A stretch of DNA of 64,000 nt from a virus. Taxonomy: Duplodnaviria > Heunggongvirae > Uroviricota > Caudoviricetes. A program made the position numbers and the translations under genes. The notes under the pieces are model-generated. The model saw only the letters and a list, made by a program, of their open reading frames with translations. It had not been told where the DNA came from and ran no database searches. The stretch lies in IMG/VR virus record IMGVR_UViG_2778261667_000017, one strand, 5' to 3'. Shown here one piece after another: positions 10,356-17,564 of this stretch. Within the stretch, counting starts at the first letter, position 1. Each line of letters begins with the position of its first letter.

Positions 10356-11153
10356 ATGAATAATCTGATGGTTATTGATGGTATTGAAGTTCGTCGTGAT
10401 GCTTATGGGCGTTACAGCCTGAACGATCTGCACAGGGCTGCTGGTTCTCTGGATAAGCATAAGCCTGCATTCTGGCTCCGCAATGAGCAAACTGAGCGTT
10501 TAATAAGCGAGTTGCAGATTTGCAACTCGGTCAATATAGAGCCAGTTAACGTTATTCGTGGCGGAAATAACCAGGGGACGTATGTCTGCAAAGAACTGGT
10601 GTATGCCTATGCAATGTGGATCAGCCCGTCATTCCATCTGAAGGTGATCCGTACTTTCGACATGGTAACCAGCGCACCGGAAAAATTATCCGGGCAGGCT
10701 GCTGACAAGATGCAGGCTGGCGTGATCCTGCTGGACTTTATGCGCCGGGAGTTAAACCTGTCTAACTCTTCAGTGCTTGGTGCCTGTCAGAAACTCCAGG
10801 AGGCTGTTGGCTTACCGAATCTGGCACCGCGCTATGCCATTGATGCTCCTGCTGATGCACACGATGGCTCAAGTCGCCCGACACTGTCACTGAGTGCACT
10901 GCTGAAACAGTATGGTATCTGCCTGACGGCTAATCAGGCATATCACCAGATGGCGAAGCTGGGGATCGTCGAGCAGCGCGAACGATACAGCCGTACCGCG
11001 ATTAACAACATCAAAAAATTCTGGTCGCTGACAGCGAAAGGCTGCATGTTCGGCAAGAACATCACCAGTCCTGCAAATCCACGCGAGACGCAGCCGCATT
11101 TCTTCGAATCCCGATTCCCTGAGCTGTTAAAGCTGCTCGATACCGTTCATTGA
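10356..11153 (+). CDS. KilA-N domain protein (antirepressor-like), 265 aa
   Basis: N-terminal KilA-N-like segment (IDGIEVRRDAYGRYSLNDLHRAAG...KPAFWLRNEQT); GAGGAG RBS. Confidence 0.7.
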   Translation: MNNLMVIDGIEVRRDAYGRYSLNDLHRAAGSLDKHKPAFWLRNEQTERLISELQICNSVNIEPVNVIRGGNNQGTYVCKELVYAYAMWISPSFHLKVIRTFDMVTSAPEKLSGQAADKMQAGVILLDFMRRELNLSNSSVLGACQKLQEAVGLPNLAPRYAIDAPADAHDGSSRPTLSLSALLKQYGICLTANQAYHQMAKLGIVEQRERYSRTAINNIKKFWSLTAKGCMFGKNITSPANPRETQPHFFESRFPELLKLLDTVH

Positions 11154-11154
11154 G

Positions 11155-12150
11155 GTGACCGTGAGAGCACTACTGACCCCTGAAATTGCCCCGCGTATGG
11201 GGATCGTATTGTTCAGACCAGGTACAGAGCTGATGCCCCTGTTTATGCAGGGGCGTGTCCTGCTGGAGCCTGAGCCAGAACGTTATTCATCTTTCGCCAG
11301 TGGTGCCGTTCCGGCGGCATCACAACCGCTGGCGGATGATCCTGCCGTTCGGGCCGTGTTCCGCTATGAGGCAGTGATCCGTCGTGCTGGTGGCGTGGAA
11401 TGTCTTGAAAGCTGGTTACTTCGTGAAAAGGGCTGTCAGTGGCCTCATTCCGACTGGCACAGCGAGAACATGACCACAATGCGGCACGCTCCGGGAGCAA
11501 TCCGTCTGTGCTGGCACTGCGATAACCAGCTGCGCGATCAGTTCACGGAACGGCTGGAAACAATGGCAACGGATAACTGTGCCCGCTGGGTGTTGTCTGT
11601 TGTGCGTCGGGATCTCGGTTTTGATGACAGTCACGTTGTGACAATGCCGGAACTGTGCTGGTGGCTGATTCGTAATGATCTGGCGGATGCCTTACCGGAA
11701 AGTGCAGCCCGTAAGGCACTGAGATTACCGAAGCCTGTTGTGCCGTCTGTCACCCGGGAAAGTGACCTTGTGCCTTCGGTTCCTGCCACCAGCATCATCC
11801 TGGATAAGGCGAAAAAGGTGCTGGCGCTGAAAGTGGATCCGGAGTCGCCGGAGTCTTTTATGTTACGCCCCAAACGTCGCCGCTGGGTTAATGAAAAGTA
11901 CACGCGCTGGGTTAAGACACAGCCGTGTGCATGTTGTGGAAGGCCCGCTGATGATCCCCATCACCTGATAGGTTACGGTCAGGGTGGAATGGGAACAAAA
12001 GCGCATGACCTTTTTGTGTTGCCTTTGTGCAGAAAGCATCACGACGAGCTGCATGCGGATACCGTGGCATTTGAAGAGAAGTATGGCTCCCAGCTGGAGC
12101 TGATATTTCGTTTTATCGATCGTGCGCTGGCAATTGGCGTGCTGGCCTGA
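11155..12150 (+). CDS. DUF968-like phage protein with C-terminal Cys/His nuclease-like motif, 331 aa (GTG start, uncertain)
   Basis: C-terminal CACCGRPADDPHHLIGYG...CRKHHDELH motif; position before Q as in ydfU-type genes. Confidence 0.55.
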   Translation: MTVRALLTPEIAPRMGIVLFRPGTELMPLFMQGRVLLEPEPERYSSFASGAVPAASQPLADDPAVRAVFRYEAVIRRAGGVECLESWLLREKGCQWPHSDWHSENMTTMRHAPGAIRLCWHCDNQLRDQFTERLETMATDNCARWVLSVVRRDLGFDDSHVVTMPELCWWLIRNDLADALPESAARKALRLPKPVVPSVTRESDLVPSVPATSIILDKAKKVLALKVDPESPESFMLRPKRRRWVNEKYTRWVKTQPCACCGRPADDPHHLIGYGQGGMGTKAHDLFVLPLCRKHHDELHADTVAFEEKYGSQLELIFRFIDRALAIGVLA

Positions 12151-12167
12151 TTTTGTGGAGAAAGTTG

Positions 12168-12524
12168 ATGCGTGATATGTATGAAGTATTGGACCGCTGG
12201 GGAGCATGGGCTGCAGCAGAAAATAGTGGTGTGGACTGGCAGCCGATAGCGGCTGGTTTCAAGGGACTTTTACCACACGGTAAAAAGTCACGTCTCCAGT
12301 GTGATGATGATGAAGGCATCATGATAGACGGTTGTGTGGCTCGGTTGCGAAAGTATAAACCAGAGGAATATGAGCTGCTCATAGCTCACTTTGTTATTGG
12401 TATCTCATTACGCACTATTGCCAAGAAGAGAAGATGTTCAGATGGCACAATTAGGAAGGAATTGCAGACTGCCATGGGGTTTGTTGACGGCTGTTTAGCA
12501 ATGTTAGCTTATAGTATGGCATAA
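12168..12524 (+). CDS. Q: Late-gene antiterminator Q, 118 aa
   Basis: Paralogous to the second Q at 52486-52863 (shared MRDxxxVLxRWGAWAA, CxxC pairs). Confidence 0.8.
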   Translation: MRDMYEVLDRWGAWAAAENSGVDWQPIAAGFKGLLPHGKKSRLQCDDDEGIMIDGCVARLRKYKPEEYELLIAHFVIGISLRTIAKKRRCSDGTIRKELQTAMGFVDGCLAMLAYSMA

Positions 12525-13718
12525 AAAATAAAATAGATTTACTGCCGATTTTTCAAAAAAGACTGGGAACTGTTTATATCCAACGTAAATAAGGCCTCCA
12601 TAAAACATGGCTGATGCGAGATATTTAACAGTTCTCATCCTTTTTTTAGCTTTATCAATCAAACCTGTAATGCTACTCTTAATACTATCTGCATTATCTT
12701 TGATTTCTTTATTTTCTTCAAACTTTAAATACTTATCGAAAGCGGACTCCACTCGAGAACGTAAGTTGTCGAATGTTTCATTGAATATCTCAATAGAAAT
12801 GTAATTGACTTTTTTTATCATCCAAAGTCCTGCGATAATCAATATTGCTTCGGTTGTTTCATTAGCCTTCACTAAGCCACCAGCTGCTATTAATGCACCG
12901 GGAATAGTCAATGCTTTTGTCTGATTAGATGATATGAATTCGTTAATTTTACTCGTGAACTCAAGATTTTTCTCATCGAGTTCGTTAAGAATTTTATTTA
13001 CAGAAAACCTCTTTGTGTAAATCTCATATAGTTCATCATATTTTTTTCTGACGAGTTCAGTAGAGTTAAGCAAGTCAAAGAAATTGAATGTACCATTTGC
13101 TTTAAATACTTCGTTTATGGCTGAACGTATAACGAGCTTGCGCTCGCTTTTGTGTAAATCATTGATTTTTATTGTGTCGAGAAGCTCCTTTATAATTTCA
13201 TATTTAAGAGACGAGTTCGATAAGCGATTAATCTCGCTATATTGTAAAAAATGCGTGAGTTCGACTGTATAACTTTTGTCTTCATTGGTGAAAAATAAGA
13301 CAGAGCAGTCACTGTTATGATGATCAGCAATTAATGAAAGGATATCTTTCCACATAAAGAAAATATGGATTTTTTCGATGCTTTCATTCTTAGAAGTAGG
13401 GAGTATTAACGGCGTTCCGATGATATAATTTTTCGGAAGAGCGTTTTGGGTGTTTACTCTAGACCAAAAAGACTCAACATTCTCATAAATTATAGCGTCA
13501 TCCCAAGATGAAGCTTGGCGATCTAGCCAAATTTCATTATTTTCGATGCAGTTTGTTGCCTTTTTATAACCTATAGATTGTAACAGTCTAATTATTTCAG
13601 AACTATTTACAATAACAATGCTTTCTTCAAGACTTATGACAGTGTAGTAGCCCTCAACTCTGCTTGAGGCTCCGTTAATAATCTGCGCTAATCTTGATAA
13701 GTCATCAGCAATTGTCAT
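12504..13718 (-). CDS. Hypothetical protein with C-terminal transmembrane helices, 404 aa (candidate effector)
   Basis: AT-rich; soluble N-domain then predicted TM segments ALTIPGALIAAGGLV, AILIIAGLWMI, YLASAMFYGGLIYVGY; 3' end overlaps Q by 21 bp. Confidence 0.75.
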   Translation of the reverse strand: MTIADDLSRLAQIINGASSRVEGYYTVISLEESIVIVNSSEIIRLLQSIGYKKATNCIENNEIWLDRQASSWDDAIIYENVESFWSRVNTQNALPKNYIIGTPLILPTSKNESIEKIHIFFMWKDILSLIADHHNSDCSVLFFTNEDKSYTVELTHFLQYSEINRLSNSSLKYEIIKELLDTIKINDLHKSERKLVIRSAINEVFKANGTFNFFDLLNSTELVRKKYDELYEIYTKRFSVNKILNELDEKNLEFTSKINEFISSNQTKALTIPGALIAAGGLVKANETTEAILIIAGLWMIKKVNYISIEIFNETFDNLRSRVESAFDKYLKFEENKEIKDNADSIKSSITGLIDKAKKRMRTVKYLASAMFYGGLIYVGYKQFPVFFEKSAVNLFYFLCHTIS

Positions 13719-13720
13719 TA

Positions 13721-14896
13721 TTAGCTGTCTCTATATCTTTTGAGTTCATCATAATTTGCCTGACTCAATTTTATCACAATTTCGCATTTGTTGTCAGTGA
13801 GAATTACAGGCTTATTTGACTTTTCGTCTCCAATAGCTCCACGCATTATTTTCAACTTAAAATTATTGTCGTTATCTGCCACTTCAATTGTAAGCGCGCT
13901 TTCAGCTGCTTTAGGAGTTGGTTCAAATTGAGGATCAATCTGGAAACCATTAAGATTAACAAAATCGACAAACGTTCCCTTACATTTGTGTGAATCAGTC
14001 AGGCATGAGTCAATTATTTTTGAAATATCCTCTATCTTAACGGACTTATTTCCGTATTTATCTTTTGATTTTTTTTCCAGTAAGGATTTAACTTCATTGT
14101 CAATAGTATCACGCAGTACACGACCGAGTGAGTTTTTACTAGCAAAAATATCTATAGCACTGAATAATTGCTGAATGCTTCTTTTATTGTCCGAATCATG
14201 TCGGCAACCTAATGAGTCTTTGAAAAAATCGCTTTTAGATTTACCTTGCAAGAAATGTACATATGAGTCACCCTTGTTTTCTGGATAACTGGCTTCGAAT
14301 AAAGTTAAATCGAACATCGCAGCCTGCCGTAAGGCATCGGTATTAATTGGATTTAATCTTGTTGGGGTCAACTTATCCGAATCAAAGTCATAGGCGCTTT
14401 GTTTATCAACCATTACGATTAGAAGTTTTCCCAAATCCTCTGGTTCGGTAGACTTATAGTGGATGAAAACAACGCTCCCCCCCTGAAGTTGGGCAACTCT
14501 CGATTCGTTATTAGCATTATGTTTAAGCTTCTCTATTATAGCTCTAGATAAATCAATGAATTCATTATTTTTATTAATGTATTTTTTTAGGATCGTAGGA
14601 ATGGATGAAGGGTTGTGATCTGAGTCTAGGAAGTTATGAAATTTGTTTTTTCGGCTAAATTTTTTCTCAATTCTGGTTATGAATTCAGATGTGACTTCAT
14701 TTTTTAGATCCCAAACTTCACCTAATCGATAATCAAATGCTCTTGAATCATTTTTTTCAAGATTTGCTGTTACAGCACCAATAGGAAAGTACGATTGTTT
14801 GCCCAGCACTACAACATGAGGCGTGGCGCCGCATTTATCGCAAGCTACAGTTGGGTCGTCAAGAACATTGCCACATTCTAAACAAGTTATATCCAT
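13721..14896 (-). CDS. Zinc-ribbon + NdpA/YejK-like nucleoid-associated-protein-family protein, 391 aa (candidate sensor)
   Basis: N-terminal CLECG-x12-CDKCG zinc ribbon; GGSVVFIHY...MFDLTLFE...YVHFLQGKSKSDFF align to the remembered YejK core; AT-rich. Confidence 0.75.
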   Translation of the reverse strand: MDITCLECGNVLDDPTVACDKCGATPHVVVLGKQSYFPIGAVTANLEKNDSRAFDYRLGEVWDLKNEVTSEFITRIEKKFSRKNKFHNFLDSDHNPSSIPTILKKYINKNNEFIDLSRAIIEKLKHNANNESRVAQLQGGSVVFIHYKSTEPEDLGKLLIVMVDKQSAYDFDSDKLTPTRLNPINTDALRQAAMFDLTLFEASYPENKGDSYVHFLQGKSKSDFFKDSLGCRHDSDNKRSIQQLFSAIDIFASKNSLGRVLRDTIDNEVKSLLEKKSKDKYGNKSVKIEDISKIIDSCLTDSHKCKGTFVDFVNLNGFQIDPQFEPTPKAAESALTIEVADNDNNFKLKIMRGAIGDEKSNKPVILTDNKCEIVIKLSQANYDELKRYRDS

Positions 14897-15013
14897 TATA
14901 TATCCCGAATTATAAGAATGAATTTTTATGTGGCTGAAAATTCTATCAAAACACTAACGCGTACGCAAAAAATATCGTAATCTGTTAAGTGTGCTCACTT
15001 CGCCACACAGCTT

Positions 15014-15046
15014 AAACCCGCCATCGAGCGGGTTTTGTCGTTTCTG
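15014..15046 (+). terminator. Rho-independent terminator in the late leader (tR'-like)
   Basis: Hairpin aaacccgc-catcga-gcgggttt followed by ttgtcgtttct. Confidence 0.5.
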
Positions 15047-15187: not shown

Positions 15188-15514
15188 ATGCCTCATAACC
15201 CAAATACCTGGCTGGAGTTGGTCCAGAGCTGGTGGCGTGGAGACACACCGCTGGGCGCAGTGATTATGTCGATCGTTATGGCTGGCTTGCGCATTGCCTA
15301 TTTTGGCGGTGGTGGTGGCTGGAAACGAAAAACGCTCGAGATTTTGCTCTGTGGTGCTCTGACGCTGACTTTTGCATCCGCTCTTGAGTATGTCGGATGG
15401 CCTAAATCTCTTTCTGTTGCCATTGGTGGCGGCGTTGGGCTGATCGGGGTCGATGCTATTCGTGGGGCTGCAATGAGAGTAATCGGTAATAAGTTTGGTG
15501 GCTCTAAGGAGTAA
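15188..15514 (+). CDS. Holin, 108 aa
   Basis: Small membrane protein with TM segments and charged C-terminus, directly upstream of endolysin. Confidence 0.8.
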   Translation: MPHNPNTWLELVQSWWRGDTPLGAVIMSIVMAGLRIAYFGGGGGWKRKTLEILLCGALTLTFASALEYVGWPKSLSVAIGGGVGLIGVDAIRGAAMRVIGNKFGGSKE

Positions 15515-16540: not shown

Positions 16541-17167
16541 TCAGTTGTCAAATGAATATACGTTAAAGGTATATGTCGACATAATTTCACCAAGTACCTC
16601 AATACATATACTTTTTTTATGAAAATTACTGGGAAATGAACTTAGCTCTTCAAGGTATTGCACATAAGTGCTGATATCACTTGCATCACGTTCAAGGAAT
16701 TTCACTTGGCCAAAAGAAGGAGTATTAATCCTGGTTCTTTGCTGGATTATATGGATAAAATGTGTAGTTGGTGAAACTATTACTCTTGAAATATCGGAAA
16801 TGATGTCTTCTTGAACTTGCCGATAAAGTAAATCCTTTGGGTAATGGTGTTTTATCTCGATGGTTGCAACATTGCCATTATGTTCAGACGTTAATATCGA
16901 CTGGTTATAAAGTGATATGTCAACAGCGCCGATACCGAGTTTTGGATGCTCACTTAAAGCAGTTAGTGTGCTGATTTGATTGAGTATAACAACTAACTCA
17001 TCACGTATTTGTGTTTCATGTTTGCGATTGTAGAAGTAGCCATTCAGTTCATTTAACTTTTTATGCATCCTATCGTGACTAATTGCTTCGATCAGTAAAT
17101 CCTGAATCATACTTTTCTCTAGGTAATCCGAACGGTTGTAAGTGACAGTATTGTGCTGGCATGTCAT
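16541..17167 (-). CDS. Hypothetical protein, 208 aa (AT-rich cargo)
   Basis: Antisense to late operon between spanin and HNH; no recognisable domain. Confidence 0.65.
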   Translation of the reverse strand: MTCQHNTVTYNRSDYLEKSMIQDLLIEAISHDRMHKKLNELNGYFYNRKHETQIRDELVVILNQISTLTALSEHPKLGIGAVDISLYNQSILTSEHNGNVATIEIKHHYPKDLLYRQVQEDIISDISRVIVSPTTHFIHIIQQRTRINTPSFGQVKFLERDASDISTYVQYLEELSSFPSNFHKKSICIEVLGEIMSTYTFNVYSFDN

Positions 17168-17210
17168 TAATATGTAAAGGTATTGTGAATACCAGAAAGA
17201 TAACGAAGTA

Positions 17211-17564
17211 TCATCGATAGAAAAACTTTACAGCCCACTCGTAAACAGCTTTGTAAATCGGTTCATGGTAAATACTATCGATACTATTCAGATGTGCGAT
17301 CATCGCCTCCACAGTTGTAGTGGTTGTTTCTAATATTTCGATTATTGCAGGGCGGTCATCATCTTCATCGAAGTATTCGAACAGCAGTACAGGTTTACCA
17401 TGCCATTCAGCATCTGAGACTCTAAGGTTACAACTACCGCTCAACTCAAAGTGAATTTTGTAATTACCTTCTACAGAATGGCCTACGGGGAAAAAGTATA
17501 GGGTGTCATCTTTGTTCAAAAGCCATTCCCATTCATAACTATTCATTTGTGAACTCCTGTTCAT
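17211..17564 (-). CDS. Hypothetical acidic protein, 117 aa (AT-rich cargo)
   Basis: Upstream partner of 16541-17167 on the same strand; acidic stretch FEYFDEDDDRPAIIEILETTTTT. Confidence 0.65.
   Translation of the reverse strand: MNRSSQMNSYEWEWLLNKDDTLYFFPVGHSVEGNYKIHFELSGSCNLRVSDAEWHGKPVLLFEYFDEDDDRPAIIEILETTTTTVEAMIAHLNSIDSIYHEPIYKAVYEWAVKFFYR

Follow-up and report, generated by a model that had tools for sequence, protein, structure and literature searches.

What is the AT-rich gene pair that runs antisense between the Q antiterminator gene and the first late lysis gene of this lambdoid prophage, and what does it do for its host? The window, i.e. the whole stretch of 64,000 nt of viral DNA that was analysed, carries at this position two minus-strand genes with an intergenic gap of 2 nt (...AGC TAA TA ATG...), and the last 21 bp of Q are overlapped by the 3' end of the downstream gene (Table 1). 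The preliminary description had given both ORFs at exactly these coordinates, with the upstream stop 2 nt before the downstream ATG. It had also noted the overlap with Q, with which the ORF coordinates agree, and the AT-richness of both genes, which is borne out by a GC content of 0.33-0.37 across the pair vs 0.49-0.58 in the flanks.

Table 1. Features of the DS-1 cassette and its flanks (positions in the window).
Feature	Position	Strand	Basis	Remark
DS-1B gene	12504..13718	-	ORF, 404 aa	proposed membrane effector
DS-1B C-terminal hydrophobic helices, residues ~365-403	12510..12626	-	AF2	hydrophobic 13-mer 367-379
DS-1B conserved core, residues 219-300	12819..13064	-	conservation, AF2	long helix 219-269 and hydrophobic hairpin 270-300
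DS-1B N-terminal alpha/beta domain, residues 1-218	13065..13718	-	AF2 secondary structure	
DS-1A gene	13721..14896	-	ORF, 391 aa	proposed sensor
DS-1A NA37 (YejK) domain, residues 64-376	13769..14707	-	PF04245	
DS-1A zinc ribbon, residues 5-22	14831..14884	-	sequence	CxxC-x10-CxxC
Cassette-specific upstream region, ~50 bp	14897..14947	-	sequence	presumed location of the DS-1 promoter
Q antiterminator gene	12153..12524	+	PF06530, E 2.6e-47	flanking
tR'-like intrinsic terminator, late leader	15014..15045	+	terminator scan	prophage backbone
lambda-S-type holin gene	15188..15514	+	PF05106, E 5.7e-25	first late lysis gene

With regard to the edges of the cassette, the C-terminus of Q departs from that of SfII Q at the cassette junction, and homology to phage SfII resumes at ~14948, the upstream edge. 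The tR'-like terminator is common to SfII and E. coli MLI107, and the MLI107 counterpart of the holin is annotated 'phage holin, lambda family'. SfII, SfIV and mEp460 carry variable cargo in the same slot between Q and the late leader. The TATAAT reported ahead of the first ATG is present, 12 nt away from it (14914..14909, minus strand), and a TTGATA at 14949-14944 of the same strand falls on the upstream cassette junction. On this strand, a consensus scan gave TTGATA-16-AAAAAT (9/12 matches), and consensus scanning found no plus-strand promoter (pR') in the 291-bp gap between the cassette and the holin gene. The cassette is an AT-rich cargo gene pair (moron) of a lambdoid prophage, with a promoter presumed to be its own, and this mobile AT-rich unit occurs in ~2% of E. 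coli genomes. Its position had been likened to that of stx, and it does occupy the lambdoid slot after Q; however, it is flanked by Q on one side and by the tR'-like terminator on the other, which puts it ahead of the late leader, whereas stx comes after the leader in textbook maps of Stx phages. This analysis also newly identifies the slot between Q and the leader as a hotspot for cargo.

Judged by protein identity, the pair is the known prophage-borne anti-phage system DS-1, with working id D390 and the proteins WP_000355468.1 (DS-1A) and WP_000150292.1 (DS-1B) (DeWeirdt, Mahoney & Laub, DefensePredictor, bioRxiv 10.1101/2025.01.08.631726; Science 2026, PMC13092281). The upstream protein is identical to DS-1A at 390/391 residues, with Y281 instead of H, and the downstream protein to DS-1B at 398 of the 399 compared residues of the 404-aa protein, with N55 instead of T. 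The gene order (nucleoid-associated protein, NAP, first), the protein lengths and the 2,393 bp of the two-gene unit are the same as in published DS-1. Both curated NCBIfam equivalog models of the system were passed, NF053868 (DS1_1_antiphage) with 451.2 bits (cut-off 330; residues 10-377 of DS-1A, positions 3-369 of the 369 of the model) and NF053869 (DS1_2_antiphage) with 375.4 bits (cut-off 315; model 1-337 of 337), and DS-1B also matches phrog_5023. E. coli MLI107 encodes the exact DS-1 proteins, likewise between Q and a lambda-type holin. The genes are real, and they almost certainly give their host protection against other phages.

The pair had been taken for an undescribed one matching no named system, a view that the database search proposed along with it overturned, since the named system DS-1 was found. 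PADLOC-DB v2 (2023) has no model of, and gave no match to, either protein; this database is older than DS-1, so that its lack of a match is uninformative on novelty, and because it has no model, a reader with older knowledge was unable to name the pair. As DS-1 is published and experimentally validated and has curated annotation models, the locus is not a discovery. In the GenBank phage collection, no match to the system was obtained by megablast and none by tblastn with DS-1B. The occurrences of DS-1 were in prophages; the sequenced free phages searched had none.

The DefensePredictor paper gives the phenotype of DS-1 and no mechanism, its sole text on the matter being 'YejK nucleoid-associated domain' (bioRxiv 10.1101/2025.01.08.631726; PMC13092281). 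There, a low-copy plasmid carried DS-1 under its native promoter region, and the phenotype was seen again on replication (PMC13092281). It abolished plaques of Bas1, the plating of which was down 10^7.6, and the -log EOP was 7.6 for Bas1, 2.7 for Bas26, 1.7 for Bas3, 1.7 for T3, 1.0 for T5 and 0.9 for T7, with small plaques (Table S7, PMC13092281). This phenotype belongs to published DS-1, which is one residue per protein off from the present sequence. Bas01 is a member of the Drexlerviridae (T1-like) and Bas26 of the Markadamsvirinae (T5-like). From the BASEL numbering, we take Bas3 to belong to the 13 isolates of Drexlerviridae. T7 degrades the host genome through gp3 and gp6. The host genome is degraded by T1 and T5 as well (Li et al., Discussion, bioRxiv 10.64898/2026.04.06.716658).

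DS-1A belongs to the NdpA/YejK family at the HMM level, as had been proposed, with 84.2 bits against Pfam NA37 (PF04245; cut-off 24.6, E 1.4e-23), and the three core motifs singled out beforehand align with their equivalents in E. coli YejK (PDB 9be2). A phmmer comparison with 9be2 gave E 1.3e-9. The AF2 model of DS-1A (pLDDT 86, pTM 0.81) had 9be2 as its sole Foldseek match in the PDB at E <=0.001 (E 7.2e-14, probability 1.0), and the TM-score of 0.43-0.49 indicates that the domain arrangement of DS-1A differs. Conservation peaks at residues 131-235, and the RK segment of GRVGRKVADFF in YejK has its aligned counterpart in a basic patch of DS-1A, G218-K219-S220-K221...K226. By analogy, DS-1A is proposed to be a non-specific DNA-binding, nucleoid-associated sensor. 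The possibility that it is the housekeeping YejK was rejected, as it scored 80.7 bits against the YejK equivalog NF001557, below the cut-off of 341; DS-1A is a paralogous member of the family.

The N-terminal zinc ribbon described earlier is present, although its spacing is CxxC-x10-CxxC (C5, C8, C19 and C22), not x12. Pfam zinc-ribbon matches to the N-terminus are weak and all sub-threshold, the AF2 model has low pLDDT there (~57-64), and conservation is weak (0.34); HHpred found the ribbon NinF-like with a probability of 86 (Table S5, PMC13092281). The enterobacterial clade retains all four cysteines, as do the NAPs of Pseudoalteromonas and Pseudoteredinibacter, and Pseudomonas-type NAPs lack them. 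Going by these cysteines, the predicted ribbon is clade-specific, which is new from this analysis. It was rejected as a marker of NAPs paired with the DS-1B family, as ribbon-less NAPs pair too: the genes for those of Pseudomonas (L009) and of a second locus, L011, have clear DS-1B homologues after them (hhalign probability 100; E 3.6e-56 and 7.9e-44).

The AF2 model of DS-1B (pLDDT 85) shows helices at residues 220-269, 271-284, 288-331, 337-383 and 385-403. The core, comprising the long helix and the hairpin (TIPGALIAAGGLVK-ANETTE-AILIIAGLWMI), is where conservation within the family peaks (0.73 and 0.67) and where the majority of invariant residues fall. The N-terminal domain has the lowest conservation of the protein (0.35-0.43) and is mildly acidic, with a net charge of -8 over 218 aa and a pI of 5.3; it is net negative in 33/33 DS-1B homologues examined. 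By analogy with PANGU, it is a candidate NAP-binding surface. DNA mimicry by this domain is not evident from its composition. Two to three transmembrane helices had been predicted for DS-1B, and three hydrophobic stretches do exist (270-282, 289-301 and 367-379), but they are ~13 aa each, lie within very long helices and are atypical of constitutive transmembrane segments. Every window of 19-21 residues scores at least +5 kcal/mol (position-independent Hessa scale, simple sum). As predicted from sequence, these segments are short and marginal as transmembrane helices. No toxSAS or other Pfam domain was found in DS-1B, and its sequence had no match among PDB chains, even at E up to 10. DS-1B has no significant solved structural relative, which is also new from this analysis.

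The partner family is large, with 782 clusters at 50% identity, another new result. A gene of the B family lies directly downstream of the YejK-like gene in all seven relatives in which that gene was identifiable. The pairing was seen in relatives from Pseudoalteromonas, Pseudoteredinibacter, Serratia, Pseudomonas and metagenomes, down to a profile E of ~1e-17, and some of the paired relatives adjoin AbiEii, AAA_21/AAA_15, BstA, ResIII or integrase genes. These gene neighbourhoods indicate that the DS-1A/DS-1B-type pair behaves as a unit.

A mechanism is suggested by Type II PANGU, which consists of a NAP (Pag2A) and a transmembrane effector (Pag2B) and is represented by PANGU-Ecu from UPEC E. 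coli (Li et al., bioRxiv 10.64898/2026.04.06.716658). In that type, the NAP quits the chromosome when it is degraded by phage nucleases, binds its membrane partner and aborts the infection; the acidic N-terminal 'DMK' domain of Pag2B binds Pag2A at 19 nM, and no activity was assigned to Pag2B (bioRxiv 10.64898/2026.04.06.716658). Both genes of PANGU-Ecu are needed, neither is toxic alone and the phenotype is abortive (bioRxiv 10.64898/2026.04.06.716658). Type II PANGU has its YejK-like NAP in a bicistronic operon, genes with a gap of <40 bp being counted as an operon in that work; the present pair has an NA37 domain and a 2-nt gap. Likened by build and description, not by sequence, DS-1 probably has the architecture of Type II PANGU.

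We consider it probable, overall, that DS-1 works by abortive infection with a NAP as sensor and has this architecture. In the lysogen, the cassette's own promoter would drive its transcription, which would run against the direction of the late operon. DS-1A would sit non-specifically on the host chromosome, with DS-1B inactive at the inner membrane, until an infecting phage degrades the chromosome and DS-1A, having lost its DNA, becomes free. Free DS-1A would then bind DS-1B at its N-terminal, mildly acidic domain, upon which the helix and hydrophobic-hairpin core of DS-1B would switch to a membrane-damaging state, stopping phage production. For this locus, we infer the steps from the resting state to this switch, and also that the effector acts by damaging the membrane. 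Published work has demonstrated, with a near-identical sequence, defence against T1-like, T5-like and T3/T7 phages. The need for both genes, the lack of single-gene toxicity, the abortive phenotype, the departure of the NAP from the nucleoid on infection and nanomolar binding of the NAP to the N-terminal domain of its partner have been demonstrated in PANGU-Ecu only and would apply to DS-1 by analogy. It counts against this explanation that the 10^7.6 drop in Bas1 plating exceeds what many abortive systems give, that DS-1 and PANGU-Ecu have different phage spectra, that the N-terminal domain of DS-1B is no more than mildly acidic and that its hydrophobic segments are short and marginal. The preliminary description, working from raw sequence alone, had guessed at an anti-phage module made of a nucleic-acid-binding sensor and a membrane partner, and this guess was correct; recovering the right function and the sensor-plus-membrane-effector logic in this way is a useful check of the method.

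The same drop, with no plaques, would fit a direct exclusion, in which DS-1B, located at the inner membrane and aided by DS-1A, keeps the genomes of specific siphoviruses and podoviruses from entering, or arrests these phages at an early step, and the infected cell survives. Many superinfection-exclusion proteins are prophage-encoded and membrane-associated, as is DS-1, and the spectrum of DS-1 is unlike that of PANGU-Ecu. However, T7, T5 and T1-like phages, all of which are restricted, differ in their receptors and entry routes. An entry blocker would also leave unexplained its strict co-inheritance with a cytoplasmic DNA-binding protein of YejK fold (seven relatives checked), and the equivalent PANGU-Ecu is abortive and needs both genes, so that we regard exclusion as unlikely. 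The difference in spectra could also reflect another trigger, with DS-1A sensing, for example, a protein of the phage or the ends of its DNA via the zinc ribbon, which is added relative to YejK and Pseudomonas-type NAPs, and then activating DS-1B. Nevertheless, B-family partners also go with NAPs that lack the ribbon, which means that the ribbon is not needed for core coupling, and the ribbon is modelled with low confidence and weakly conserved. The phages restricted by DS-1 are, moreover, all known degraders of host DNA (Li et al. and general knowledge), and such a trigger appears quite improbable.

A tightly coupled two-gene operon with the membrane protein gene downstream might suggest toxin-antitoxin behaviour, a mode in which several abortive systems act (Li et al., introduction, bioRxiv 10.64898/2026.04.06.716658, and general knowledge): DS-1A would restrain a membrane toxin, DS-1B, which would be released when the phage shuts off host transcription or when DS-1A is degraded. 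In PANGU, from which (not from DS-1) the opposing evidence comes, single-gene constructs are non-toxic and both genes are needed for defence, and the NAP is an activator, as DNA-binding-dead Pag1A is toxic when co-expressed with Pag1B (bioRxiv 10.64898/2026.04.06.716658). We hold this reading to be very unlikely. A role outside defence, such as prophage or chromosome silencing or maintenance by a NAP-like protein, with the plasmid phenotype as an over-expression artefact, is hardly credible. [quoted passage not shown]

Abortive infection through a NAP sensor, which we favour, has an extended form that we hold to be doubtful. DS-1 might be a functionally distinct branch of NAP sensors, in which the ribbon-bearing NAP responds to the destruction of host DNA that T1-, T5- and T7-like phages bring about, and not to the EndoII pathway of T4, and in which the partner is an alpha-helical membrane pore that is gated by the NAP and has not been classified before. 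If this is true, the opening mechanism of the partner, once solved, would define a new effector class.

Several known systems resemble parts of DS-1. Its alpha/beta head, stalk helix and hydrophobic hairpin make DS-1B recall CorA/Mrs2/ZntB channels and ClyA-family alpha-pore-forming toxins (MakA, SmhB and AhlB), which are among the nearest known systems. Membership of the CorA family was rejected, as no CorA Pfam match was obtained (E up to 1) and the GMN motif is absent; the Foldseek similarity to the CorA fold is non-significant. YejK/NdpA shares with DS-1A the domain family, the fold and the motifs GGxVxFxHY, DLTxxE and FLxG...DFF, but identity is ~19%, and DS-1A adds the N-terminal zinc ribbon, an operon coupled to an effector and a prophage cargo cassette. 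Type II PANGU shares with DS-1 the bicistronic order of a YejK-like NAP gene ahead of a partner gene; the N-terminal domain of DS-1B, which is net negative, and its C-terminal hydrophobic helices would correspond to the acidic and transmembrane parts of Pag2B, and both are E. coli systems of widespread families with relatives linked to defence islands. The differences concern the spectrum, since PANGU-Ecu blocks T4 and is ineffective on T1 and T5, whereas DS-1 acts on T1-like, T5-like and T3/T7 phages and has no entry for T4; the expression, which was by IPTG induction for PANGU-Ecu and from the native promoter on a low-copy plasmid for DS-1; the ribbon of DS-1A, the word 'zinc' appearing 0 times in the text of the preprint; and the N-terminal domain of DS-1B, which is only mildly acidic. 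In Type I PANGU (Pag1A NAP and Pag1B GRel toxSAS), a soluble alarmone synthetase serves as effector, in contrast to the proposed membrane partner DS-1B, but the sensor is of the same class as DS-1A and the proposed logic is the same, a NAP freed from a degraded chromosome binding the DNA-mimicking domain of its effector.

The two-gene cassette is DS-1, an anti-phage system that has already been described, named and validated. Its upstream product (DS-1A) passes the NCBIfam model NF053868 'DS1_1_antiphage, nucleoid-associated anti-phage protein' (451 bits, cut-off 330) and its downstream product (DS-1B) passes NF053869 'DS1_2_antiphage' (375 bits, cut-off 315), both being equivalog models of NCBIfam release 20; neither protein has a match in PADLOC-DB v2 (2023). 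DS-1 was named by DeWeirdt, Mahoney & Laub ('DefensePredictor', bioRxiv January 2025; Science 2026, PMC13092281), whose Table S6 gives it (working id D390) as a unit coding for WP_000355468.1 (391 aa, YejK/NA37) and WP_000150292.1 (404 aa). The window cassette (12504-14896) and this unit are of equal length, 2,393 bp, and the window proteins are identical to the published pair at 390/391 and 398/399 compared residues, respectively. The preliminary description had presented the pair as undescribed, which the model matches and this near-identity contradict; its functional reading as an anti-phage module was largely right.

Positions of the features discussed, in the window and in compared loci and genomes
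Feature	Location	Strand	Description
KilA-N and DUF968/HNH-like genes	window 10356-12150	+	265 aa and 331 aa, 5' of Q
Q antiterminator gene	window 12153..12524	+	PF06530, E 2.6e-47
DS-1B gene	window 12504..13718	-	404 aa
DS-1B/Q overlap	window 12504-12524		convergent genes
DS-1A gene	window 13721..14896	-	391 aa
TATAAT	window 14914-14909	-	12 nt ahead of ATG
tR'-like terminator	window 15014-15035
Holin gene	window, from 15188		lambda-S type, PF05106
Second AT-rich island	window 16541-17564	-	GC ~0.36; ORFs of 208 aa and 117 aa
Published DS-1 unit	NZ_RRVY01000002.1 220602-222994
JB2 match (hit H19)	NZ_CP182203.1 3133945-3137537		DS-1 in two pieces
SfII_49/50	L006 1841-3455	antisense	hypothetical genes, 340 and 194 aa
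SfIV gp48/49	L007 1922-3344	antisense	hypothetical genes, 356 and 108 aa, plus transposase
mEp460 slot	L008 851-1777	antisense	hypothetical gene, 308 aa, plus Dam methylase
P0059 (DS-1B homologue)	L002 8001-9584		Pseudoteredinibacter, 527 aa
Pseudomonas aeruginosa pair	L009/L010 1-7422		beside Pf-like genes
Distant B-family locus	L013 950-7194		upstream gene cut by contig end

The ORF list contains both minus-strand genes as first described, and most of the proposed layout holds. A gap of 2 nt separates the stop of the upstream gene from the start codon of the downstream one, the 3' end of the downstream gene overlaps that of the plus-strand Q gene by 21 bp, the pair is AT-rich (GC 0.33-0.37 versus 0.49-0.58 in the flanks), and the TATAAT is present. 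The proposed slot is correct as regards the antisense position beside Q, but is to be narrowed: as the cassette lies 5' of the tR'-like terminator, it is located between Q and the late leader. No minus-strand terminator was found downstream of DS-1B in the terminator scan, so transcripts of DS-1 may run on into Q in antisense. At the cassette junction, the C-terminus of Q is unlike that of phage SfII Q. The KilA-N and DUF968/HNH-like genes have the same order in SfII and in E. coli MLI107, and are therefore ordinary backbone. The second AT-rich island, immediately past the lysis cassette, is possibly a further candidate for cargo or defence; neither of its ORFs has a match in Pfam, NCBIfam or PADLOC, and MLI107 has iss at the equivalent position.

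The DS-1 cassette is present at ≥99% identity in 106 of 5,426 complete E. coli genomes and was not found in the GenBank phage set. In every match listed from these genomes, the cassette overlaps an 'antiterminator Q family' gene, and MLI107 encodes the exact DS-1 proteins between Q and a lambda-family holin. In E. coli JB2, the match is split around an IS5-like ISKpn26 transposase, which is a natural disruption of DS-1. The late leader and holin of SfII match the window from 14948 onward with 95% identity, and only about 50 bp 5' of DS-1A are specific to the cassette. SfIV and mEp460 also have this late leader and holin. As all three phages carry other cargo in the same slot, the Q-to-leader interval is a variable cargo hotspot, and their slots offer candidate cargo genes; the SfII pair has no NCBIfam match.

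With regard to DS-1A, the assignment to the NdpA/YejK family was borne out by the Pfam HMM check (NA37 domain, 84 bits, cut-off 24.6). Its AF2 model is confident (pLDDT 86, pTM 0.81), and the sole significant PDB match of this model is E. coli YejK 9be2 (Foldseek E 7e-14), which is also found by sequence (phmmer E 1.3e-9). With a score of 81 bits against a YejK equivalog cut-off of 341, DS-1A is a paralogue rather than YejK proper. The zinc ribbon is N-terminal as proposed, but its spacing is CxxC-x10-CxxC instead of x12, and it is modelled with low confidence. The enterobacterial clade has this ribbon, as do the nucleoid-associated proteins (NAPs) encoded at the loci from Pseudoalteromonas and Pseudoteredinibacter, whereas Pseudomonas-type NAPs exhibit acidic N-terminal tails in its place.

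The AF2 model of DS-1B (pLDDT 85) places an alpha/beta domain at the N-terminus (residues 1-218) and, after it, very long helices at 220-269, 271-284, 288-331, 337-383 and 385-403. The two to three transmembrane helices initially assigned to DS-1B correspond to hydrophobic segments that are short and atypical for such helices. Conservation peaks in the helix 219-269 (0.73) and in the hydrophobic hairpin 270-300 (0.67), and is lowest in the N-terminal domain (0.35-0.43). Residues invariant within this helix and hairpin include N241, K242, K268, P273, A275 and A278. The net charge of the N-terminal domain is negative in 33/33 homologues, though only mildly so (-8 in the window DS-1B). The homologue P0059, labelled 'SH3 domain-containing' in its source annotation, has a C-terminal extension of ~120 aa, and several others have low-complexity lysine-/glutamine-rich tails past the last hydrophobic helix.

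At E ≤ 1e-3, a DS-1B profile search retrieved 782 clusters (50% identity), of which 372 have E ≤ 1e-10, and nearly all members of this B family among the matches listed have 380-450 aa. A YejK-like (NA37) gene lies directly 5' of the B-family gene in all seven loci with an identifiable upstream gene: L001 (Pseudoalteromonas), L002 (Pseudoteredinibacter), L003 (Serratia), the distant metagenomic L012 and L014, and, with a ribbon-less NAP, L009 (Pseudomonas) and L011 (metagenome). The NAP gene and its B-family partner form one evolutionary unit, and the B family is a large one. Genes near related loci include integrases, AbiEii, AAA_21/AAA_15, BstA_C and ResIII. The Pseudomonas aeruginosa pair adjoins Pf-like filamentous prophage genes (Zot, DUF2523), so filamentous prophages may also carry the system. 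In the eighth locus, L013, genes for a glycosyltransferase and for a >1,300-aa protein with an RVT_1 reverse-transcriptase domain, a possible defence-island neighbour, come after that of the B family.

The published -log EOP values for DS-1, which carries the replicated flag, are 7.6 for Bas1, 2.7 for Bas26, 1.7 for Bas3 and for T3, 1.0 for T5, 0.9 for T7 and about 0 for SECphi27, with small plaques for Bas26, Bas3, T3, T7 and SECphi27; neither the bioRxiv nor the Science version gives a mechanism (PMC13092281). Bas01 belongs to the Drexlerviridae (T1-like) and Bas26 to the Markadamsvirinae (T5-like). From the BASEL numbering, Bas3 is presumed to fall among the 13 isolates of Drexlerviridae. 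T7 and T3 degrade host DNA via gp3 and gp6. The host genome is also degraded by T1 and T5 (Li et al., bioRxiv April 2026, 10.64898/2026.04.06.716658).

The same preprint, which does not cite DS-1, describes PANGU, bicistronic operons around a YejK-like NAP. In Type I, the NAP is paired with a toxSAS enzyme; DNA is threaded through the pore of the NAP dimer, which binds only DNA of at least roughly 400 bp, and a DNA-binding-dead NAP renders the system toxic. In Type II, the partner is a 'transmembrane effector' bearing an acidic DNA-mimicking (DMK) domain at its N-terminus and a TM domain at its C-terminus. In PANGU-Ecu, from E. coli, both genes are required and either alone is non-toxic, infected cultures stall in an abortive-infection pattern, and T4 escapes via denA (EndoII) mutations. 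On infection, the NAP fusion Pag2A-GFP departs from the nucleoid, and Pag2A binds the N-terminal domain of its partner with a KD of 19 nM; how the partner then acts is undetermined according to the authors (Li et al.). DS-1 is likened here to PANGU-Ecu by description, not by sequence comparison. The defence and integrase neighbours of DS-1 relatives likewise fit the PANGU 'Cluster 2' description, which does not prove that they are the same.

The most likely mechanism for DS-1 is abortive, by NAP release and membrane damage. DS-1A would coat the host chromosome and be set free by phages that destroy host DNA; free DS-1A would then engage the N-terminal domain of membrane-bound DS-1B, whose conserved helix-hairpin core would damage the membrane and abort the infection. 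This is supported by the fact that the phages restricted by DS-1 all belong to host-DNA-degrading groups. The main tension is the contrast in spectrum: PANGU-Ecu stops T4 and not T1 or T5 (Li et al.), whereas DS-1 restricts T1-like and T5-like phages and has no T4 entry (PMC13092281). This leaves room for another explanation, in which the ribbon-bearing NAP clade may sense something other than host-DNA loss. The contrast between the spectra of DS-1 and PANGU-Ecu could also stem from differences in expression level or in sequence.
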